DNA of 64,000 nt from Candidatus Poribacteria bacterium (GTDB taxonomy: Bacteria; Poribacteria; WGA-4E; GCA-2687025). A program made the translations under genes and the position numbers. The notes beneath the pieces are model-generated. The model searched no databases and was not told the DNA's origin. It was given only the letters and a program-made list of their open reading frames with translations. Shown here one piece after another: positions 7,274-58,278 of the stretch. Position 1 is the first letter of the stretch. The number at the start of each line of letters is the position of its first letter. The stretch lies in the NCBI GenBank assembly GCA_028818695.1, contig JAPPNK010000029.1, positions 7,254 through 71,253 of the forward strand. Reading direction: 5' to 3'.

Positions 7274-7397
7274 AGTTTCGTCTGCATAGCCCCATTTAAA
7301 TCCATTCTATTATGATCGCCGCATTGGCGTACTGCCTGGACGCCTTACAGACCTAATGCATAAAGTTGGGACATCTGAACAAATAAACCCTTTATTG

Positions 7398-7604
7398 ATG
7401 GAAAAGCGTCGCCAACCAGACCGCCATTCCCGCGCAGCATGTCCCTGTGAAAACGGGGAGCGGGAATCCAGAGGCGTCGCAGAAGCTGCCCGCGTTCGCA
7501 TTCCGATTTGTCCCAACTAACGCCTTACGGTCAGGGTTTACACCTTGACCAAATTGAAAGCGATGGGTTATAATCTGGAAGAGTTGGGCATCAATCCGGA
7601 ATGA
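7398..7604 (+). pseudogene. Decayed paralog remnant of the 7763-8215 gene (in-frame TAA at 7518-7520)
   Basis: The reading frame ends ...TLTKLKAMGYNLEELGINPE*. This mirrors the C-terminus ...SELEKQGYNLEDLGIDPE* of the gene at 7763-8215. The frame is interrupted by TAA at 7518-7520. Only the C-terminal ~20 aa similarity is visible by eye. Confidence 0.3.
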
Positions 7605-8369: not shown

Positions 8370-9227
8370 ATGAACCCGAAAAACTTGAACTATATCTGTG
8401 AAGAAGGGCGCTGGATCGCCCACGACGGAAACCGCGTCTATGCCGCCTATCTCATGAACGGAGCCGCCTTGAAGCCGTACATCTCCGTCCTGCCGGCGCC
8501 GAGCGGACGCAACCTGCTCGCGGACGCTCCGCACGACCATATCCATCACCACGGCGTCTGGTGGGGGCATGGCGACGTCAACGGAGTCACCTTCTACCTA
8601 GAGCTGCCAAGCCATCGCCCCGGACGCATTCTCCACCGCGAATACGCCAACCTCGACCTGAAAAAAGACGCGGTCGGATTCGCGCAAATACTGGACTGGA
8701 ACGCCCCGACAGGCGAGACGCTCCTTCAAGAAACGCGCCAGATCGCGCTGCTCTTCAACCGAAACGACGGCTACACGCTCAACCTTGAATCGGCCTACGA
8801 GGCGCAGACCGACATCGCGTTCGGAACCACCAAAGAGTCGGCGATGCCGATCATACGCATGGGGGACGCCTTCAACGGAAAAGCGGGCGGGGCGATTCTC
8901 AACAGCGAAGGCGGACGCGGCGAAAAAGAGACCTTTGGACAGCCCGCCCGCTGGGTCGATTACAGCGCGCCCGTCCCCGAACGATACGGGCGGCACAAGC
9001 GCGAAGGGCTAGCCTGCCTAGACCATCCAAGCAACCCGCATCACCCGAACCGATGGTTCACGCGCGAATACGGACCGCTCTCGCCGCGCGAGGGGCATCT
9101 CTTCACAGGCGCCGAAACGCTGCCAAAAGGGGATGTCCTGCGCCTGAAACACCGCGTCGTCGTCCACAAAGGCGGACCCGAAGAGGCGGATATCGAAGCC
9201 GCGTGGCAAGCCTACGCCGACGAATAG
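8370..9227 (+). CDS. PmoA-family (DUF6807-type) protein
   Basis: RBS GGAGAAAC precedes the ATG. The motif HDHIHHHGVWWGHGDVNGVTFY and the overall length fit the PmoA/DUF6807 family. That family commonly sits next to Gfo/Idh/MocA and TIM-barrel isomerase genes, as it does here. Confidence 0.8.
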   Translation: MNPKNLNYICEEGRWIAHDGNRVYAAYLMNGAALKPYISVLPAPSGRNLLADAPHDHIHHHGVWWGHGDVNGVTFYLELPSHRPGRILHREYANLDLKKDAVGFAQILDWNAPTGETLLQETRQIALLFNRNDGYTLNLESAYEAQTDIAFGTTKESAMPIIRMGDAFNGKAGGAILNSEGGRGEKETFGQPARWVDYSAPVPERYGRHKREGLACLDHPSNPHHPNRWFTREYGPLSPREGHLFTGAETLPKGDVLRLKHRVVVHKGGPEEADIEAAWQAYADE

Positions 9228-9240
9228 CGTTCTAAAACGC

Positions 9241-10239
9241 TTACTCCGCAAACTGCGCGTCAAAGGCAATGGCGGACGGTTCAAAGTCGAGCCGCTTCAA
9301 AAAGGCGGCCGCTTCCGCCGCGCCATGTTCGCGGTCCATTCCGCTGTCTTCCCACTCGACCGAGAGGGGGCCGTCATGGCCGATCTCGTTGAGCGCGCGG
9401 ATGATCTCCTCAAAATCGATGCTGCCGCGCCCGATGGATCGGAAGTCCCAAAACCGCCGGCTGTCGCCGAAATCGATATGCCCGCCAAAGACGCCCGCCT
9501 CTTTCGGCGTCGGCGACCACCATACATCTTTCATATGCGCGTGGTAGATGCGGTCGGCGAAACGGCGGATGAACAGCGTATAGTCGACGCCCTGATACCC
9601 CAGATGGCTCGGATCGTAGTTGAAGCCGAACGCCTCGCGCCGTCCGACCGCCTCCAACGCCTTTTCGGCGCTGACGATGTCGAAAGCGATCTCGGTTGGA
9701 TGGACCTCTAGCCCAAACTTGACGCCCGCTTCGTCAAAGACGTCCAAGATCGGGTTCCATCTGTCCGCGAAGTCTTGGTATCCCGCTTCGATCTGGTTGG
9801 GCAGGTTTGGGGGAAAGGAGTAGGCGAGCGGCCAGATGCGGCTGCCGGTGAATCCGCAGACGACGTCGACGCCCAGTTTGGCGGCGGCTCTGGCGGTGTT
9901 TTTCATCTCTTCTGCGGCGCGTTCTTGGACGCCGTCCGGGTCGCCGTCGCCCCAGACGCGGGGGGGCAAAATCTGCTCGTGCCGCGCGTCAATGCGGTCG
10001 CACACCGCCTGCCCCGCTAGATGGTTGCTAATCGCAAAACATTTCAGCCCATGTTTTTCAAGGATGTCCCAGCGCGTTTGGCAGTATCCGTCGTCTTCCA
10101 GCGCCTGCTCCACATCGAAGTGGTCGCCCCAGCAGGCGAGCTCCAGCCCGTCGTATCCGAACTGCTTCGCCTTTTCCGCCATCGTTTCCAGCGGAAGGTC
10201 CGCCCATTGCCCCGTAAACAAGGTGATCGGCCGCGCCAT
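9241..10239 (-). CDS. Sugar phosphate isomerase/epimerase (xylose isomerase-like TIM barrel)
   Basis: The N-terminus [42 protein letters not shown] and later [12 protein letters not shown] and HAHMKD segments are typical of the AP endonuclease 2 / xylose-isomerase-like TIM-barrel family. Confidence 0.85.
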
Positions 10240-12515: not shown

Positions 12516-12652
12516 GTCTCTATAGGCGATGATTTTGATTTTAAAGAGCCGTTTTAGAATGCAGAGGCTGTCTGGGAGAACTCTGGATTCTCGCACGTTT
12601 TACCGCAAGGGCGGGAATGACAATCTGCCCGATTTGAACAGGATTTTCGTAT
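12516..12652 (+). repeat. Hairpin-bearing intergenic repeat, copy B (MITE/REP-like)
   Basis: Same element as 10337-10461, in the same orientation. The hairpin loop is expanded by a 12-nt insertion (ATTCTCGC-ACGTTTTACCGCAAGG-GCGGGAAT). Confidence 0.8.
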
Positions 12653-32471: not shown

Positions 32472-33874
32472 AAACCTCCAACGCCGAGCCAGACCGCCAT
32501 ATGCATGAGCGAGACGGCGAAGCCTGTTTTGAACCAGCGTGGAGCCGGCACATATCTGAAGCTGAAATAGATCACGAACGGGCCGGTGGAGTAGTTGGTC
32601 AGGCAGCCGCACAGGTTAGAGAAGTAGGCGATGAGCGCGACGGACGCCATCGCAGGGGCGCCGGCGCCTGCCGCCGCCGAAAGGAAAACGCCCGCCAGCG
32701 CCATGATATGCCCCGTCAACATCGAGAAGCCGTACATCGAGTAAAAATAGACGACCGCCAAGACGACAATCGCCGCCGTTGCGCCGAAACCGGACGCCCA
32801 TCCGCCGACCTGATCGCCGAACCAGCTCGCGACGCCTTTTTCGCGCAGCAGGGTCGCCATCGACAGCAGCCCGCCGAGCCATACCACCGCGTCCCATGCC
32901 GAGCTGTTCTTGATGACGGCGCTCCAATCTTCAAAGCCCGTCAACAGAAGCGCCGCGACGCCGAGCCATGCGACCTCCGTTGAACCCAGCCCATGCAGGT
33001 ATTTATGCGTCGCCCATAGAAAAATCATTCCCGCGAAAATGACGCCGATTCCGATCTCCCGCCGCGACCAGGGACCCATCTCTTCCAGCTGGAGGCGGGC
33101 GGCTTTTTGGGCGGGGCGCGTGTCCTCAACCGTCGGCTTTGTGAGCCAGCGTATGAACCATGGCAAAATCCCAAGCCCGAACAGACCTGGCATCAACGCC
33201 CCCCATGCCCATGTCGCCCATGTGAATTCGACGTTCAAAACATCCTTTGCCGCGTCTTGAACGAGAGGGTTCGCCGCCATGCCGGTTAGAAACATCGCGG
33301 CGGCGATCAGGTTTGCGTGGGCGCCGAGCTGGATCAGATACTGCCCCGCCCGCTCCGAATTTTTGTCAGGATGCGAGTCCAGCGCCTCCGCGAGAGAGCG
33401 CACAATCGGCGACAGGACGCCGCCGCCCCGCGCCGTGTTGGAGGGTATCGCCGGACCGAGAATCAGTTCCGCGCCGCAGACCGCATACCCAAGTCCGATC
33501 ATGGAGCCGCCCCACTTGTCGACGAGCGTCAGCGCGATGCGTTTGCCTAAGCCCGATGTGACGACCGCGTTCGCAAACAGAAACGCCGCCGCGACGAGCC
33601 AGACGACCGAGTCGCCGTACCCGGCGAGCGCTTCCTTTTTGTCTACCGTTTGCGTCGTCATCAGCGCGGCGAGGCCGAAAACGACCGCCGCTCCCATCGG
33701 AAACGGGCGCAGTATGAGCGCCGCGATGACGCCCGCGAAGACGCCGAGTATGCGCCACGCCTGCGTTTCAAGCCCCATCGGCGTCGGCATGAACCAGATC
33801 AAAAGCGTCAACAAGACGCAAGCCGCCAGCCCCGCCCATCGTCTCGATTGTTCGTTCACAGCCTCTCCCGCCAT
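32444..33874 (-). CDS. DASS-family anion:sodium symporter / anion permease
   Basis: Multi-TM protein with the hairpin motif PSNTARGGGVLSPI, characteristic of the SLC13/DASS family. I set the start at ATG 33874, which follows AGAGG. Confidence 0.85.
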   Translation of the reverse strand: MAGEAVNEQSRRWAGLAACVLLTLLIWFMPTPMGLETQAWRILGVFAGVIAALILRPFPMGAAVVFGLAALMTTQTVDKKEALAGYGDSVVWLVAAAFLFANAVVTSGLGKRIALTLVDKWGGSMIGLGYAVCGAELILGPAIPSNTARGGGVLSPIVRSLAEALDSHPDKNSERAGQYLIQLGAHANLIAAAMFLTGMAANPLVQDAAKDVLNVEFTWATWAWGALMPGLFGLGILPWFIRWLTKPTVEDTRPAQKAARLQLEEMGPWSRREIGIGVIFAGMIFLWATHKYLHGLGSTEVAWLGVAALLLTGFEDWSAVIKNSSAWDAVVWLGGLLSMATLLREKGVASWFGDQVGGWASGFGATAAIVVLAVVYFYSMYGFSMLTGHIMALAGVFLSAAAGAGAPAMASVALIAYFSNLCGCLTNYSTGPFVIYFSFRYVPAPRWFKTGFAVSLMHMAVWLGVGGLWWKLIGWW

Positions 33875-34034
33875 CGCCTCTGTTGAGGGAGAGTATCGCA
33901 CACTTCCGCGCGCTTGACAAACAACCTGGCGAGCCGCATAATGAACATACCAATCGCGGATCATGGACGCCAAGCAGCAGCGGATGGTTTTTAATTTGCG
34001 GGAGAATTAAGATGCCGATAAGGGCGTCGGGCAA

Positions 34035-35240
34035 ATGAACAACCCTAGACGATTTCCGCCTGTTCCATTCAATCCGGAGGTGTTGCGTTGGGCGCGCGAA
34101 AGCCTAAACCTCTCGTTGGAGGAAGTGGCGCGGCGCATGAAAAAGACTGCCAACGATGTCGAGGCTTGGGAACGCGGGGAGGCGTCCCCTACATATGTTC
34201 AACTTGAGAAGTTGGCGTATAAAATTTACAAGCGTCCGCTCGCGCTCTTTTTCTTTCCTGAGGTACCAGATGAGGAGCCGATTCAGCAGTCGTTCAGAAC
34301 CTTGCCGGAGGCGGAGCTGAAGCGTCTGTCGCCAAGAATGATTGAACTCATGCGGAAGGCGAAAACGCTGCAGATGAATCTTTCGGAGCTCTACAAAGGG
34401 AGGAATCCGTCCGCGCGTCCTATTTGGCGGAGTCTTCGTTTCGGGCGTTCAGACAATCCAGACGACAGGGCAAAAGCGGCGCGAAACGATCTTGGAATTG
34501 ATCTCTCCGAGCAGCAGAGCTGGATGGATAACGACATTGCGCTCAAGCGCTGGAGACGGTCGCTAGAAGAGCGCGGCGTCTTCGTATTCAAAGATTCGTT
34601 CAGATCTCCTGGCAGGAAGTTGGGGGAAGACGCTGAAAGCGGCGAGAGCGTTTTTTCGGGCTTCTGCCTGCACGACGATGAGTTTCCGGTCATCTACGTC
34701 AACAACAACGATGCCAAAACGCGGCAGATATTCACGCTCTTTCATGAGCTGGCGCATCTGTTGATGGGCGTCAACGGGGTACTTCCCGACTACGGCAACA
34801 AGATCGCCTATTCAAACAACGCCGAATGGATTGAGCCGTTGTGCAACCGCTTTGCCGCTGAGTTTCTTGTCCCGGCGCAAGACTTTAAAGCGCGCTCCGA
34901 GGGGCATGCTGTCAATAAAGACAAGGTAGAGAAATGGGCTGCGTTATACAGCGTCAGCCGCGAGACGATCCTGCGCCGCTTACTTGATTGGGGTCGCGTA
35001 AGCCCGCAAGATTACGCTCAACAATCGCGGATATGGATAAATCAAAAGAAAAAAAGCGGGAAAGGCGGCTCATATTATAACAATATCATTGCATATCTAG
35101 GAGAGCGGTATATTGAGACCGTTTTCGATCGGTATGATGACGGGGCTATTTCTATGGAAGAAACCGCAGATTATTTGAATCTGAAGGCGTCCCAAATTGT
35201 TGCATTAGAAGAAAAGATAGCGGACAGAAGCAGAGGCTAG
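34035..35240 (+). CDS. XRE-type HTH fused to ImmA/IrrE (COG2856, DUF955) zinc metallopeptidase
   Basis: The N-terminal HTH is LNLSLEEVARRMKKTANDVEAWERGEASPTYVQLEKLA. An HExxH motif lies within FTLFHELAHLLMG. The gene is AT-richer than its flanks. Confidence 0.85.
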   Translation: MNNPRRFPPVPFNPEVLRWARESLNLSLEEVARRMKKTANDVEAWERGEASPTYVQLEKLAYKIYKRPLALFFFPEVPDEEPIQQSFRTLPEAELKRLSPRMIELMRKAKTLQMNLSELYKGRNPSARPIWRSLRFGRSDNPDDRAKAARNDLGIDLSEQQSWMDNDIALKRWRRSLEERGVFVFKDSFRSPGRKLGEDAESGESVFSGFCLHDDEFPVIYVNNNDAKTRQIFTLFHELAHLLMGVNGVLPDYGNKIAYSNNAEWIEPLCNRFAAEFLVPAQDFKARSEGHAVNKDKVEKWAALYSVSRETILRRLLDWGRVSPQDYAQQSRIWINQKKKSGKGGSYYNNIIAYLGERYIETVFDRYDDGAISMEETADYLNLKASQIVALEEKIADRSRG

Positions 35241-35242
35241 AC

Positions 35243-35731
35243 TTGACCGTTTATGTTTTTGATACCGGCCTGTTCATTACCTTCTTCAGTTACTATTATC
35301 CAAACATATTCCCTTCTCTCTGGGAACGCTTTAATGAAACGTTAGCGAGAGGCCGCATAACCTCGACGCGCGAGGTGTTCAACGAGCTGGGAAGACATGG
35401 CGATTCCGATATGGACTGGTGTCGAGAGCATAAGGAACTATTTCCAACGCCAACCGTTAGCGAGGGCGCATTCGTCAGTGAAATTTTCAAAGTTTCGCGT
35501 TTTAAGGAGATGGTGACCAAAAAGAATGTCATTGACGGCAGACCAATCGCAGATCCATTCGTCATTGCGCGGGCAAAACATCTCTCTGACAGAGGAATAT
35601 CTTCTTGCGTCGTTACAACTGAAAAGAAAAGGACGCCGACCGGGTCTAAAATTCCGAATGTATGCGAACATTTCGGTATAGACTGCGTAAACCCAGAAGG
35701 CTTTATGGAGCGCGAAAACTGGCGTTTCTGA
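35243..35731 (+). CDS. DUF4411-family PIN-like putative nuclease
   Basis: A TTG start lies 2 nt after the ImmA stop and follows GCAGAGG. YVFDTG..., FPSLWERF, STREVFNEL, IADPFVIARA, VVTTEKK and KIPNVCEHFGI match my recollection of the DUF4411 pattern, including conserved acidic residues of a PIN-like fold. Confidence 0.75.
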   Translation: MTVYVFDTGLFITFFSYYYPNIFPSLWERFNETLARGRITSTREVFNELGRHGDSDMDWCREHKELFPTPTVSEGAFVSEIFKVSRFKEMVTKKNVIDGRPIADPFVIARAKHLSDRGISSCVVTTEKKRTPTGSKIPNVCEHFGIDCVNPEGFMERENWRF

Positions 35732-35733
35732 GG

Positions 35734-36252
35734 CTAAGCCTTCTCCAAAAAAACCGAATCCTCATGTATCGTCGCCTTAAAGTTCAGCAGCGGCCGATTT
35801 GCAGGTCCGACGATCACCTGTCCGTCCAATCCAAACTGCGACCCGTGGCAGGGGCATTCTAGCCGTTCTCGGTTCGCGTTGTAGGCGCTGACGCACTGCG
35901 CGTGGGTGCAGAGCGCCGTGTTCGCCGCGACCTCCTCCTCCGAGACGCGCGCGAGAAGGATCGTCTCGTTGCCGCGCCCGTTGTTGTCGGTTCCGAGCTC
36001 CATGAGAACGGCGGCGTCCTTCACCTCCTGCGTCCCTCCGACCTGTTTCAGCTGCGCCGACATCTTCACCTCAACGCCTGGGGGCGTCTCGCCGGTTGTC
36101 GGGGGGTCGGGGTCTATCGGAGGCGGTGTAGGCGTCGGGTCGGGGTCTGTCGGCGAGGCGCCGTCTCCGCATCCAACCCAGCCCAAGATCGCCAAGACCG
36201 CTCCGCTCTGAAGAAACCGCCGCCGCGTCGTCTCGTTTCTGTTTTCGCTCAT
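35734..36252 (-). CDS. Tat-exported Rieske [2Fe-2S] domain protein
   Basis: Twin-arginine signal TRRRFLQSGAVLAILG. Rieske boxes CTHAQC and CPCHGSQF. I set the start at ATG 36252, which follows AGGAG. Confidence 0.8.
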   Translation of the reverse strand: MSENRNETTRRRFLQSGAVLAILGWVGCGDGASPTDPDPTPTPPPIDPDPPTTGETPPGVEVKMSAQLKQVGGTQEVKDAAVLMELGTDNNGRGNETILLARVSEEEVAANTALCTHAQCVSAYNANRERLECPCHGSQFGLDGQVIVGPANRPLLNFKATIHEDSVFLEKA

Positions 36253-36293
36253 GTACTTGTTTCCGCTCCTGTCTTTCTGATCTTTCAAAAGGT

Positions 36294-37379
36294 TTAGAGG
36301 CTCAAATTTTTGATTGGAATCCATATGCCGCCCGTCTGCGCCGCCAGCGAACGCTGAAACGGTTCATCGATCCCGATCACATCGACCGTGATGCGCGACC
36401 GGTACAAAGCCCCCATGACCGCCGAGCTCTTGTAGTCGCCGCCCGCCGCCTCGTCCGTCACAAACACAAAACGGCGCGACGACCCCTTCCGAAACTTCAC
36501 CTCGCCAATCGACTTCATGATCGCGTTCAAACTTTTTTCGCCGCCGCTGCACTGCACCTTGCGCAGCTCCTTGCGCACCTTCTCCACATCTGAGGTCAAT
36601 TTCATAAATTTCATCGATTCCTTCATCAGCGGCTGGCGCGTATGGAAGGTCACGATACCGATCTGAAAGTCGAGGCTGCCCCTCTCCAAAACGGACGCCA
36701 TCTCTTCAAGGCGGCGCGCGACCGCATAGATGTTGTCCTGCATGCTTCGGCTGATGTCCAGCAGAAAGATGACGTCAACCGGCCCGTCTCCATCGCTTTT
36801 TTTGATCATCTCCTCGGCGATCATGCGAAGGGGGCTTTTCGGCGCTTCGATTTCCGTGTTTTCGTCCGACAAGCCGTTGGACTGGATCAGCTGCCCAAGA
36901 CCGCTGCCGGTTCCTTTTCCAGGGCGCCGCCCCGCTCCTTCTCCGCGTCCGCTGGTTGCGGCTCCCCTTGAGGCGCTGCGCGTTCCAGACGGCGCCTTAT
37001 TCACATCGGCAGAAAGAGCCGACAGTTGAAATTCGGTCGACTTCGCGTCCGGCAGCGCCGCGTCGGTGCGCATCTTCATCGGGCGGGACGGGGTCGGCGT
37101 CGGAGGCGCGAGCGTCGGCGCATGCAGGGAGGCTCCTGCTATGTTTTCTTTGCGGAATTTGGGCCGCGCCGTCTCTTTGCGCATCTTCAGTCGGCGCGCC
37201 GCCGGCGTCAGAGAACGTTTTTCGGGCTGAATCAGCTCTGCGGCGATTCCGCCCTCCGTTTTGATATGCTCGTGGACCTGCAGACTCGCCAGACCGATTA
37301 GCAGCAGCGCATGAAAGACAAACGACGCCATTAACGCGACGCGCCCCGCTGACGGATTCTTTTGCGTTTCACTCCGCAT
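36294..37379 (-). CDS. Membrane-anchored von Willebrand factor A (vWA) domain protein
   Basis: An N-terminal TM helix (VALMASFVFHALLLIGLASL) is followed by a Pro/Ala-rich linker. The vWA MIDAS region is DVIFLLDISRSM ... GIVTFH. The start ATG 37379 follows GGAGG. Confidence 0.75.
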   Translation of the reverse strand: MRSETQKNPSAGRVALMASFVFHALLLIGLASLQVHEHIKTEGGIAAELIQPEKRSLTPAARRLKMRKETARPKFRKENIAGASLHAPTLAPPTPTPSRPMKMRTDAALPDAKSTEFQLSALSADVNKAPSGTRSASRGAATSGRGEGAGRRPGKGTGSGLGQLIQSNGLSDENTEIEAPKSPLRMIAEEMIKKSDGDGPVDVIFLLDISRSMQDNIYAVARRLEEMASVLERGSLDFQIGIVTFHTRQPLMKESMKFMKLTSDVEKVRKELRKVQCSGGEKSLNAIMKSIGEVKFRKGSSRRFVFVTDEAAGGDYKSSAVMGALYRSRITVDVIGIDEPFQRSLAAQTGGIWIPIKNLSL

Positions 37380-43604: not shown

Positions 43605-43620
43605 GGGCGGCGCAAGCGGC

Positions 43621-46198: not shown

Positions 46199-46337
46199 TC
46201 GTTGCCACGGGCGACGCAGGCACCTGCGCCTCGCGTATCTCCAAAAAGATTCGTTGAGAGGCAATCAACGCTGTCAGCATCAGCAGAACCAACGCAACGG
46301 CGCGGAAGAAAACGATAAGTTGACGATCCATCAGATT

Positions 46338-47645
46338 TTACTGGTGCGGCTCCTCTGAGAAAGGAGGCGCGCCTTGGCTGCGACGAAGACGACGCTGTTG
46401 CTCCATTTCTTGCCAACGGAGAAACGCTTCTCGGCGCTCTTTTAGCGCATTCCGCTCAGATTCAGTTAGATTCTTATCGTTCATAGCGCGTTTCATCTCT
46501 TCTAGAAGCTGATTGAGTTCTTCTTCAGAAGGCGGTCTGAAAAGATGCGTTTCTGAAAGCGATGGCTTTTCTAGACTTTCTGGTCCCTCGTCTAGACTTT
46601 CTGGTCCCTCGTACGAATCATCCAGCGAAAAACTACCATCATCTCCCGCTATTTTGGGCAACGGCGTTTGAGGTACCGCTAGCGGAGAGTCGGCAGCGAT
46701 CGAAGCATATTGCTTACGCGAAGCGTCGCTTCGTTCAGCCCAAACTTCATTGATGACGCTAACAGCGTCTTCACATTTCATCCAATCAATGGGACTCATT
46801 TCATAATGAGGTGTCCAGCTCGCTATCGTTTCGACCATATGCGCCAGCTGCTCATCGCTAAATTTTCTAAACGCATCCATTCTCGCGCCATGAAGCGTAG
46901 GGCGTTTGTCGGGCGACAGCCGTTCGCCATCCTCTCCAATGTAAATGACGTTGATGCCCTCTGGGAAAACTCCTCGAAACAGAAGCTCGTATTCTTCTTC
47001 GGGCGTAAGCTCACGCTCACCGTCAACGCTATACAATGCCTCCGATGTGTAGGAGAATCCGCCGCTTGGATGCTTCTTTATTTTTGAAAAGCGTACATGG
47101 ATAGCTGGCTCCAACGTTCTCCATGCATTGAGCTCGCTATCCCAGGTTTTTTTAGGACCGATGCTAAGCTGTGAGATGTCGCCGGACTTTAACATCTCTC
47201 GAAGTTGAGTGAGAACCATGTCTCTGTTTATAATAGAGGCGTTAGGGAGCTCCGCGATTGGGGCACCGCGGTATTTCTCATAGCCTTCCCTAAGCATTTT
47301 TGCAAGGCTTTCGTTGTCTTCCTCACCATGCGCGCGTAGGTAAGTGTCAATGTGATAATCCACATGTTTTTCCCATCTGTCTTGGACAGAGATTCCTCGG
47401 GACTCTTCATGGGGATCATTGGTTTGCGCTTCCGTCAAAGATTCCTCGTTAGGAGAGGGAGAGTCGCCCGACGCAACAACAATTTCTGTCGGGGAATAAT
47501 CAAGTTCAGACTCGCCAGACTCTTTTCTTATACTCTCCTCCATCGAGGTTTCTGATGTTGACAGGACGTTCCAATAAACTGCGACTGCTACAGTCACCGA
47601 TGTCAGAACAATGGCGCAAATCCAGGCGATCGATTTTTTATTCAT
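46338..47645 (-). CDS. Orphan membrane-anchored protein (435 aa), AT-rich, coiled-coil C-terminus
   Basis: The ATG follows AGGGAGAAAG. The N-terminal anchor is IAWICAIVLTSVTVAVAVYW. The composition is protein-like and rich in E/K/S. I recognised no domain. Confidence 0.65.
   Translation of the reverse strand: MNKKSIAWICAIVLTSVTVAVAVYWNVLSTSETSMEESIRKESGESELDYSPTEIVVASGDSPSPNEESLTEAQTNDPHEESRGISVQDRWEKHVDYHIDTYLRAHGEEDNESLAKMLREGYEKYRGAPIAELPNASIINRDMVLTQLREMLKSGDISQLSIGPKKTWDSELNAWRTLEPAIHVRFSKIKKHPSGGFSYTSEALYSVDGERELTPEEEYELLFRGVFPEGINVIYIGEDGERLSPDKRPTLHGARMDAFRKFSDEQLAHMVETIASWTPHYEMSPIDWMKCEDAVSVINEVWAERSDASRKQYASIAADSPLAVPQTPLPKIAGDDGSFSLDDSYEGPESLDEGPESLEKPSLSETHLFRPPSEEELNQLLEEMKRAMNDKNLTESERNALKERREAFLRWQEMEQQRRLRRSQGAPPFSEEPHQ
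46570..46611. repeat. Perfect 21-bp tandem duplication inside the 435-aa gene
   Basis: TCTAGACTTTCTGGTCCCTCG occurs twice back to back. It is in frame and duplicates a 7-aa unit (within ...EGPESLDEGPESLEK...). Confidence 0.9.
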
Positions 47646-47673
47646 TCGTTCTTTCTCCCTTGCGTTGGAATCA

Positions 47674-48498
47674 TCAAGGATTCAATTTCCATATTGCAGT
47701 CACGTCTTCATCCCCACATGTAACATGGAAGTCGCCAGCATCAGTAATATGCGCATGAGCATAACTCATTCCCCTTTCAACTAGTTTCATTATGCAAGGA
47801 CACACTGGTACCTCTGCAACTGCCTTTAGAGATTCCTTGTAGCCTTGGCGCTCCTTCAGGGTTAGAGTAATTTCATAGGCTTTTACCTTCTTCCTTCCTT
47901 TTTTGATATGAGTTTGGTTGATTGATTCCGTCGAAAACATACCTTCAATAGAGTCAAGAAATTCACCTGCGATTTCAACAGCAGTTGCAACACCCACTAC
48001 TAGACCGCTTTCGTCCCATTCCTCTTCAGTAATTGTCAGTTTAATAGGAGTTTCATTATGCTGAAACCCAATAAGAACGCTTCCATTCTTATTATCCGTG
48101 TCACGAGAAGGATGATCAGGTTTATCGACGTTATCATAGAAACCGAACCCTGCATATGCATTTACATGACCAGCCCCATGAAAAGATTCTTCATCACCGT
48201 TACCAAACCCACCTGCCCACGGGCTTCTTCCATTGAGGTAGGGAGTGATCTCAGCTCTGGCATAACCAGGTGAGGCGACAACAGTGGTACTCAAATATGG
48301 CTCCGCATCAATTGCGCAATCATTGTGAATTCCAGGTCCTGCCAACAGCATTGAGCCTTCAATTGCGTCATCAACCATCCAAAGCGAGAGACCGAAGCCC
48401 CCGACAGCGAGCGCCATCATGAGCGCAGTCGGGATGTTCAGGAAGGGCTTGACTCGTCCAGCAAGTTTCGTCGTCAGGGCGTTCAGTGTTCGTCGCAT
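47674..48498 (-). CDS. Orphan membrane-anchored protein (274 aa), AT-rich
   Basis: ATG 48498 follows GGAGAAA and lies downstream of the predicted sigma-54 start site. An alternative GTG start lies at 48528. The N-terminal anchor is IPTALMMALAVGGFGLSLWMV. I recognised no domain. This is the most AT-rich gene in the window by eye. Confidence 0.6.
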   Translation of the reverse strand: MRRTLNALTTKLAGRVKPFLNIPTALMMALAVGGFGLSLWMVDDAIEGSMLLAGPGIHNDCAIDAEPYLSTTVVASPGYARAEITPYLNGRSPWAGGFGNGDEESFHGAGHVNAYAGFGFYDNVDKPDHPSRDTDNKNGSVLIGFQHNETPIKLTITEEEWDESGLVVGVATAVEIAGEFLDSIEGMFSTESINQTHIKKGRKKVKAYEITLTLKERQGYKESLKAVAEVPVCPCIMKLVERGMSYAHAHITDAGDFHVTCGDEDVTAIWKLNP

Positions 48499-48552
48499 CC
48501 GTTTCTCCGTTTCATTTTGTTCCGCCACATCATTGCGACACGCCTCCCTTAA

Positions 48553-58200: not shown

Positions 58201-58278
58201 GGCGGACGTAGCTCAGCTGGTTAGAGCTCCTGACTGTGGATCAGGAGGTCGGGGGTTCGAATCCCCTCGTTCGCCCCA
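58201..58278 (+). tRNA. tRNA-His (anticodon GTG), with encoded G-1 and CCA
   Basis: The cloverleaf can be drawn by hand. The acceptor stem is GCGGACG/CGTTCGC, the D arm is GCTC-AGCTGGTTA-GAGC, and the anticodon arm is CCTGA-CTGTGGA-TCAGG. The T arm is GGGGG-TTCGAAT-CCCCT. An extra 5' G opposite discriminator C73 is the tRNA-His hallmark. Confidence 0.85.

Follow-up and report, generated by a model that had tools for sequence, protein, structure and literature searches.

In this study, we analyzed a 64,000-nucleotide (nt) stretch of DNA from Candidatus Poribacteria (assembly GCA_028818695.1, contig JAPPNK010000029.1, positions 7,254 to 71,253; hereafter the window), whose source genome comes from a sponge metagenome, and found that two adjacent genes at positions 34035-35731 very probably constitute a functional VapBC52-type module of toxin-antitoxin (TA) or abortive-infection type, which occupies a Poribacteria defense hot spot as accessory cargo. 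The first gene, A (34035..35240, plus strand, ATG start), encodes a 401-aa protein predicted to combine an XRE-type helix-turn-helix (HTH), an ImmA-IrrE zinc-peptidase of family M78 and a C-terminal helical domain. The second gene, T (35243..35731, plus strand, TTG start), encodes a 162-aa DUF4411 PIN-like nuclease, a putative VapC52-type toxin. By homology, the pair belongs to the VapBC52/DUF4411.1 TA family and is not a new system. Its annotation as a VapBC52-type module of an uncultivated sponge symbiont can be made confidently; its own function is predicted from the characterized homologue. Three observations go beyond routine annotation: the cassette is swapped with nucleotide precision, the cysteine switch described for the characterized antitoxin is not conserved, and relatives of the pair are recurrently embedded in type III restriction-modification (R-M) loci.

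Homology to the characterized VapBC52 pair

Both window proteins matched the same single PDB entry, 9vzy, end to end. This entry and 9vzz are, respectively, the Mycobacterium tuberculosis VapB52-VapC52 complex and the VapC52 D6A toxin (Rv2515c/Rv2514c; PMC13273310). VapC52 has a PIN fold and cleaves tRNAs in their anticodon or variable loops (Singh et al., NAR 2026, PMC13273310). Its antitoxin VapB52 is unusually large: an N-terminal HTH domain binds the toxin, the middle domain is an IrrE/CapP-like zinc-peptidase and a C-terminal helical domain occludes the active site, with a VapB52:VapC52 stoichiometry of 1:2 (PMC13273310). The zinc site of VapB52 consists of HExxH, E245 and C229, the last being a fourth ligand that occludes the peptidase active site, and single-stranded DNA (ssDNA) leads to HExxH-dependent self-cleavage of VapB52 near an FR motif, by which the N-terminal domain is removed (PMC13273310). 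In 2019, Rv2514c was shown to be toxic and Rv2515c to counteract this toxicity (TASmania, PMC6504116), and toxicity and rescue of VapBC52 are also credited to Tandon et al. 2019, as cited in PMC13273310. In addition, over-expressed VapC52 protected M. smegmatis against phage D29 (PMC13273310). The pairing had been noticed computationally as well: COG2856-Xre fusions were predicted to be associated with PIN toxins, with Rv2515c named (Makarova 2009), the DUF4411.1 and HTH-DUF955 pairing was described together with the observation that actinobacterial DUF4411.1 genes are often mono-cistronic (Matelska 2017), and NetFlax contains an ImmA antitoxin node associated with PIN-like domains. A first-pass annotation of the window, made from the sequence alone, had cast the peptidase-HTH protein as antitoxin or sensor and the PIN protein as effector, a division of roles that has been shown experimentally in VapB52/VapC52; its remark that no experimental characterization of the pairing was known is out of date, as the homologous M. 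tuberculosis pair was characterized in 2019 and 2026.

Protein A matched Pfam HTH_3 at residues 17-61 (2e-7, 31.4 bits; cut-off 23) and Peptidase_M78 at residues 208-316 (1.4e-21), the latter region including the motif FHELAHLL at residues 236-243. A single alignment to 9vzy_A placed residues 15-395 of A on residues 5-387 (E 3.6e-38), and BLASTP gave 32% identity to VapB52 over 394 columns. We then examined the conservation of functional residues in a family alignment of 144 members, which comprised window A, VapB52, four locus-derived homologues and 138 search representatives; the homologue search with A had found 7,148 representative clusters. The zinc ligands H237, H241 and E267 of A (H216, H220 and E245 in VapB52) were kept in 142, 144 and 143 of the 144 members, respectively, and E238 of HExxH was likewise conserved in 143. 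The FR motif, F87-R88 in A (SFRTLP), aligned to F75-R76 of VapB52 (DFRRL) and was also widespread (F in 124/144, R in 139/144). Protein A thus has the three-part layout of VapB52, with an intact HExxH...E zinc site and an FR motif in the linker.

The fourth zinc ligand behaved differently. C229 of VapB52 aligned to Leu250 of A by HMMER and MAFFT or to Pro251 by BLASTP, and in the 144-member alignment the corresponding column was occupied mostly by D (61) and T (39), followed by S (12), F (8) and L (5). The switch cysteine is thus, judging from the alignment, a peculiarity of VapB52 without family-wide conservation. Since conservation extends to the FR motif and the zinc ligands but not to the cysteine, activation in the family in general would need another explanation.

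Protein T matched Pfam DUF4411 (PF14367) over the entire profile (1-159 of 159; 1.4e-30, 106.6 bits; cut-off 23.5) and chain D of 9vzy over its full length (E 3.8e-11, 29% identity), with D7 of T aligned to the catalytic D6 of VapC52. Among 35 aligned homologues, E44, E48, D104 and E127 were invariant and D7 was at least 90% conserved. An AlphaFold2 (AF2) model of T (predicted local distance difference test, pLDDT, 87.7; predicted template modeling score, pTM, 0.85) had VapC21, Shigella VapC and VapC11 as its top Foldseek matches (probability 1.00, template modeling (TM) score 0.51-0.64). It should be noted that the Foldseek PDB library was older than 9vzy and could return only generic VapC proteins, and that the specific link to VapBC52 came from the PDB sequence search. 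Taken together, sequence and model show T to be a PIN-fold protein whose acidic active site is complete. The suggestion in the first-pass annotation that T resembles DUF4411 with a PIN-like fold was right, and the searches with the three Pfam profiles DUF4411, Peptidase_M78 and HTH_3 all gave matches above cut-off or strongly significant. No model of NCBIfam matched T, and A scored 33 bits against the NCBIfam spr1629-family antitoxin, far under the cut-off of 335 bits.

All features of VapBC52 that can be tested in sequence, except the cysteine switch, could be identified in the window pair. Both systems consist of adjacent co-directional genes with the antitoxin first, namely a ~400-aa HTH-M78 protein followed by a ~155-160-aa DUF4411 PIN protein, and they share HExxH, the Glu zinc ligand, the FR motif and the acidic PIN residue D6 (D7 in T). 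On the other hand, C229 is present in VapB52 and absent in A, the host phylum of the characterized pair is not Poribacteria, and the window pair sits in a swappable defense hot spot with an R-M relic. Canonical VapBC systems are more distant. VapC toxins are tRNases, and canonical VapBC also has a PIN-fold toxin with four acidic residues; however, the canonical antitoxin is an 8-13 kDa protein of the ribbon-helix-helix (RHH), AbrB or PhD type, whereas the one here is a 401-aa multidomain peptidase, and canonical complexes are 2:2 or 4:4, in contrast with 1:2 for the VapBC52 homologue.

Several other systems built on an ImmA-type peptidase were compared with the pair. RosmerTA (RmrT/RmrA) is an anti-phage TA system with RmrT toxins of other kinds, for example membrane-depolarizing (Millman et al. 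2022; Ernits et al. 2023). Its antitoxin is also an HTH joined to an ImmA-type zinc peptidase, and A matched 16 PADLOC RmrA models (best PDLC03949, 2.2e-21, residues 12-391). However, none of the PADLOC models, including RmrT, matched T at E <= 0.1, and the same was true of its homologue in locus L003, so that PADLOC, in the form applied in this analysis, would not call the window pair. CapP of the cyclic oligonucleotide-based anti-phage signaling system (CBASS) is an IrrE-type peptidase that is ssDNA-activated through a cysteine-switch loop, but it cleaves a separate repressor, CapH, and thereby induces CBASS, whereas A is a fused HTH-peptidase that lacks the switch cysteine and has a PIN toxin as partner. 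The PADLOC capP model matched only the peptidase core of A (5e-20, residues 207-319), the capH match was marginal (E 0.015) and lay within the fused HTH, and neither CBASS genes nor a separate CapH could be found near the pair, whose neighbors are a transporter and a Rieske protein. A CapP/CapH-regulated CBASS was rejected on these grounds.

It is also conceivable that A acts as a regulator of a mobile element or DNA-damage regulon in the manner of ImmR/ImmA or IrrE/DdrO, with the DUF4411 gene as passenger or target. Peptidase_M78 is indeed the ImmA/IrrE domain, IrrE structures were the next-best PDB sequence matches to A (1.4e-5, residues 213-282), and a three-component regulatory cascade was originally proposed for such proteins (Makarova 2009). 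Both ImmA/ImmR (ICEBs1) and IrrE/DdrO (Deinococcus) involve an M78 domain and DNA-damage-linked proteolysis of an XRE-type HTH protein. However, they are transcriptional switches without a toxin partner, and IrrE and CapP cover only the peptidase core of A (213-282 and 207-319), whereas the VapB52 match extends over residues 15-395 and includes the toxin-binding N- and C-terminal domains. The 20-kb neighborhood of the pair (10 kb on each side) contained metabolic and transport genes only, with no separate repressor, integrase, phage or conjugation genes. Moreover, the A-T pairing is invariant and apparently translationally coupled (see below), and the homologous VapB52 physically neutralizes its PIN partner. 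A regulatory role of this kind is thus considered very unlikely, and an ImmA/ImmR-type mobile-element switch in particular was rejected, as the HTH and the peptidase are fused in A and mobile-element genes are lacking.

Conservation and distribution of the two-gene unit

The organization of the two genes suggests that they are translated together. The stop codon of A (TAG, 35238-35240) is separated by 2 nt from the TTG of T, and a Shine-Dalgarno (SD) motif for T read from the sequence (AGAGG, 35232-35236, plus strand) lies within the 3' end of A and 6 nt ahead of the TTG; the SD within A and the 2-nt spacing suggest translational coupling of A and T. The TTG start agrees with the homologues of T, which begin with the same N-terminus, MT[VI]YVFD. 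The motifs YVFDTG, NEL, ADPFVIA, VVTTE and KIPNVCEHFGI could all be read in T. Downstream, the stop codon of T (TGA, 35729-35731) sits 2 nt from the stop of a convergent Rieske open reading frame (ORF; 35734..36324, minus strand), and upstream of A lies a minus-strand gene for a transporter of the divalent anion:sodium symporter (DASS) type. What the first-pass annotation had reported for the locus, that is, a 401-aa protein with XRE HTH and FHELAHLL, a 162-aa protein starting at a TTG 2 nt later with the motifs listed above, and a position between the DASS gene and a convergent Rieske gene 2 nt from its stop, agreed with our ORF and Pfam analyses throughout. Neither gene can be a chance ORF, because both have hundreds to thousands of full-length homologues.

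To characterize the genomic context of the pair, 83 loci encoding relatives of T were fetched from metagenome and viral contigs, seven of which were cut by the contig end upstream. In all 76 evaluable loci, the gene immediately before T was a co-directional homologue of A, and the same order was also present in L002-L005 and L073. Thus, A and T are one strictly conserved two-gene unit, whose order is invariant over 76 diverse loci. Homologous pairs were identified on 15 plasmids, 8 of them conjugative; they were rare in phage records, and PHROGs has families for A as well as T. Relatives of T were scattered over Nitrosomonas, Kentrum, Competibacteraceae, Hydrogenedentes, Nitrospinae and Verrucomicrobia, and their identity to T was 92% in one close relative and no more than 59% in all others. 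In one of the loci, L005, a HicA/HicB TA pair (1022-1624) was observed ~1.5 kb upstream of A-T, which shows that TA modules cluster there.

The close relative L002, which is 98.1% identical to the window over 18 kb at the nucleotide level, carries the pair at the same site. Here, A and T were 95.9% and 95.3% identical to the window genes, respectively, in comparison with 98.0-99.2% for the flanks. The ratio of nonsynonymous to synonymous substitution rates (dN/dS) was 0.28 for A and 0.45 for T, both based on small counts (7.5-24 synonymous changes), and shows that both genes are under purifying selection. Positive selection as the cause of the faster evolution of the pair was rejected, since these ratios are consistent with purifying selection. 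A further possibility is that the pair is a decaying relic in which both genes are becoming pseudogenes. The lower identity of the pair than of its flanks (95.3-95.9% vs 98.0-99.2%), the decayed methyltransferase next to it and the frameshift of T in another Poribacteria locus, L073 (both described below), might be read in this way. However, both frames were intact in the window, L001 and L002, dN/dS was well below 1 and every family-invariant residue was kept, which makes decay of the pair exceedingly improbable.

A swappable cargo site in Poribacteria

The composition of the pair differed from that of its surroundings. The GC content of 34035-35731 was 0.503 in comparison with 0.596 for the whole window, within the lowest 2.9% of equal-sized windows, and the GC content at third codon positions (GC3) was 0.60 for A and 0.50 for T, below the 0.70-0.77 of six neighboring genes. 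Comparison with related Poribacteria loci further showed that the cassette is accessory, compositionally foreign, strain-variable cargo in a defense hot spot, the borders of which could be defined to the nucleotide. On the right, the border is at 35732..35736, which comprises the 2-nt spacer and the Rieske stop codon; six Poribacteria loci aligned through the Rieske stop codon and diverged at the next base. On the left, we compared the window with L006, a related Poribacteria chromosome with ~90% identity (DASS gene 93%) which shares the S8 peptidase and DASS genes and lacks A, T, the Rieske gene and the VWA gene. Homology to this A-T-less locus ended at 33909. L006 could not serve as an empty-site reference, because its sequence beyond this point has undergone rearrangement (REP-like repeats followed by PBP5, GatB, GatA and sigma-70 genes), and the comparison defines the left limit only.

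Rieske homologues on other Poribacteria contigs revealed a cargo site immediately behind the Rieske stop codon. In L070 (8517-10797) and L071 (1810-4094) it was occupied by a PemK toxin gene and a 636-aa DUF7380/EMARD_N gene, which corresponds to the PADLOC defense candidate PDC-S39 (8e-200), and in L072 (6655-8565) by PDC-S39 alone, without PemK. The PemK/MazF-type gene of L070 and L071 overlapped the Rieske stop, and no obvious small antitoxin gene was called beside it. In L073, a more distant Poribacteria contig, the cargo consisted of T, an intact A (421 aa, 66% identical) and a 487-aa N6_N4-methyltransferase/Mrr_cat (MTase/Mrr) gene.

The MTase/Mrr gene of L073 explained the left edge of the cassette. 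A 96-nt segment of the window (33912..34007, plus strand) is a relic of the 3' end of such a gene: positions 33951-34007 encode QSRIMDAKQQRMVFNLREN*, the last 16 residues of which are identical to the C-terminus of the 487-aa L073 protein, and positions 33912-33958 align to the preceding L073 codons in a degenerate form with frame-breaking indels. Stop codons lie upstream of the coding end of the relic in the window, and the relic is fused 35 nt upstream of the DASS start. The islet is thus recognizable from its sequence as the remnant of an MTase/Mrr-A-T cassette whose methyltransferase has been deleted to the last 96 nt. The leader upstream of A (33959..34037, plus strand) was unusually conserved, being ~94% identical to L073 (~8655-8734) vs 72.5% for the whole locus. 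Its first 50 nt (33959-34008) were 100% identical in L072 (8571-8620), although the surrounding genes were only 70-88% identical. In L072, these 50 nt are the last of the MTase/Mrr gene, and the PDC-S39 start codon (ATG) follows its stop at a distance of 5 nt. The presence of the identical MTase/Mrr end before different cargo indicates that A-T or PDC-S39 was exchanged precisely between the MTase/Mrr and Rieske stop codons. The 50-nt MTase/Mrr end may serve as a regulatory or recombination anchor.

Within the relic, we identified a candidate sigma-70-like promoter for A-T (33914..33942, plus strand; TTGACA, 17-nt spacer, CATAAT), which had 11 of 12 consensus matches and was the best site in 33700-36000. 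At the homologous positions of L073, where the MTase is intact, the sequence is a poor match (TTCAAC...GATATGG). This fits, without proving it, a gain of the promoter after loss of the upstream gene. An inverted repeat around the start codon of A (33986-33999 / 34031-44) might have formed a leader hairpin or an operator, but this idea was dropped, as the repeat was weakened in L073 with no compensatory changes. No credible Rfam family could be observed over 33700-36000, the top score being 17 bits against a gathering score of 68.

Variation at the site was also seen within natural populations. Contigs from three other sponge-associated runs (X2-X4, unknown library type) were examined, in which assembler depth indicates presence or relative amount and not expression. 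The depth of the T segment in the three runs was 11.5, 15.7 and 39.7, and that of the DASS flank 26.3, 29.6 and 58.7, so that the A-T segment (33903-35739) was present at roughly half the depth of both flanks. Contigs of these runs ended at 33930, and alternative unrelated sequence was joined at 35736/35740; the loose-end sequences found no match in any of the fetched loci. Half depth and alternative junctions show that hot-spot alleles co-exist and that the islet is polymorphic in natural populations. Thus, the earlier suggestion of an AT-rich, inserted accessory islet gained support from composition, cargo replacement, the gene relic at the left border and half-depth coverage, and comparison with related genomes located its borders and showed that the pair is not core synteny.

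Association with restriction-modification loci

Inspection of the genes around A-T in the fetched loci pointed to type III R-M systems. Of the 58 loci that could be evaluated downstream, 17 had a Res protein (PADLOC REase_III) starting immediately behind T, and Mod or another MTase preceded A in 18 of 45. The full type III layout, Mod-A-T-Res, was found in 11 of the 37 loci that could be evaluated on both sides (~30% of the closest relatives). Loci with this co-directional, tightly packed arrangement included L074, L075, L081, L087, L112, L133, L143, L149, L153, L003 and others; L074, in which the four genes are tightly packed, contains the best relative outside Poribacteria. Matelska 2017 covers links to type I Hsd only, and no description of a type III embedding of A-T was found in the literature, which we searched non-exhaustively. 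The window itself contains the relic of a different MTase/Mrr gene only and no Res, and is not a Mod-A-T-Res locus. The recurrent embedding suggests a functional link between restriction and the tRNase module.

A precedent for such a link is PrrC-EcoprrI, in which a latent tRNA anticodon-loop nuclease is encoded inside a type Ic R-M locus; the R-M enzyme itself keeps the nuclease latent, and a phage peptide triggers it. The nuclease gene inside the R-M operon is a feature that ~30% of the closest A-T relatives share; on the other hand, PrrC is an unrelated protein, and the window A-T has lost its R-M partner. These observations could be combined into one tentative reading, which we regard as possible but doubtful: A-T would be a dedicated second-line partner of R-M systems and not a free-standing TA module, with A-T and PDC-S39 interchangeable and the MTase leader as anchor. 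Here, the ssDNA-sensing peptidase would release the tRNase when restriction fails or when DNA ends accumulate, whether generated by restriction or of phage origin, so that a logic like that of PrrC-EcoprrI would be built from unrelated parts. A-T and PDC-S39 would be swapped exactly between the MTase/Mrr and Rieske stop codons, and the near-invariant 50-80-nt MTase end and leader would provide the recombination or regulatory anchor.

Proposed mechanism of the window pair

By analogy with VapBC52, the following sequence of events may be proposed for the pair as a functional TA or abortive-infection-type module. One A would bind a T dimer, with the N-terminal domain gripping the toxin and the C-terminal domain occluding its active site. 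A trigger that exposes ssDNA, such as phage replication or DNA damage, would activate the peptidase of A, which would then cut itself at or near F87-R88, so that the N-terminal domain detaches. Freed T would cleave tRNAs in the anticodon or variable loop, and translation of cell and phage would be arrested. The module probably began as a methyltransferase or restriction partner and would now be transcribed from the promoter inside the 96-nt relic.

Several points weigh against this proposal. First, identity to the characterized pair is only 29-32%, which means that substrate choice and trigger could differ from those of VapBC52. Second, there is no cysteine in A between HExxH (H241) and E267, where the VapB52 activation model would place one. 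As C229 is not conserved, the published cysteine-switch autoinhibition is not general and cannot be transferred unchanged to A, and latency of the peptidase in A must be achieved differently from VapB52. Third, co-expression of VapB52 and VapC52 gave no phage protection (PMC13273310). Fourth, T of L073 (6903-7395, minus strand) is split by a frameshift into 89-aa N-terminal and 111-aa C-terminal ORFs, so that the toxin gene is a true pseudogene unless the long-read assembly is wrong at this point; if the split is real, the toxin can be lost. Finally, the candidate promoter is a consensus match only, and Poribacteria promoters are uncharacterized.

Some of these points would equally fit a module that works but is purely selfish, that is, an addictive remnant of a lost R-M system that has persisted because its loss would be costly and provides neither phage protection nor a stress function. 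Nothing but the 96-nt relic remains of the MTase/Mrr gene that once preceded A, the toxin gene of L073 carries a frameshift, close relatives either lack the pair or have other cargo in its place without visible compensation, and defense by VapBC52 was seen with over-expressed toxin and not with the intact pair. However, the two genes are under purifying selection and their catalytic and cleavage motifs are intact in two genomes, the site otherwise holds defense candidates (PDC-S39, 8e-200; PemK), type III R-M operons enclose relatives of the pair, and defense is known for the related RosmerTA systems. Considering also that addiction and defense are not mutually exclusive, a purely selfish remnant appears unlikely, and a functional VapBC52-type module remains the explanation that we favor for the pair.

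Other features of the window

The genes flanking the pair were identified by Pfam as Na_sulph_symp (1e-120) and Rieske (5e-12). The start of the DASS ORF was called at 33973, which is an upstream extension, and its real ATG is most likely at 33874. The only tRNA gene in the window is at 58202, and none is present within 22 kb of the islet; tRNA-linked integration of the islet was rejected, as no tRNA gene is near.

A second and more AT-rich islet was observed at 46250-48500 (GC 0.43-0.50 vs ~0.60), between an STT3-like gene and a sigma-54 activator gene. It contains two minus-strand ORFs, 46338-47645 (435 aa) and 47674-48528 (284 aa), neither of which had a match in Pfam or PADLOC. Another strain-variable boundary was found at 43609, where homology between the window and L002 (18364) stops; beyond it, the window has a CDP-alcohol phosphatidyltransferase and STT3, and L002 has a 526-aa ORF without a Pfam match. 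Finally, dispersed repeats resembling repetitive extragenic palindromes (REP) or miniature inverted-repeat transposable elements (MITE) (...GTCATTCCCGC...GGGAATC...) were present in the window at 7347-7535 and 12571-12621. The same repeats occurred in L006 at 7301-7468, 9684-9734 and 9811-9924, and two of the L006 copies coincided exactly with the break in synteny upstream of the DASS gene.

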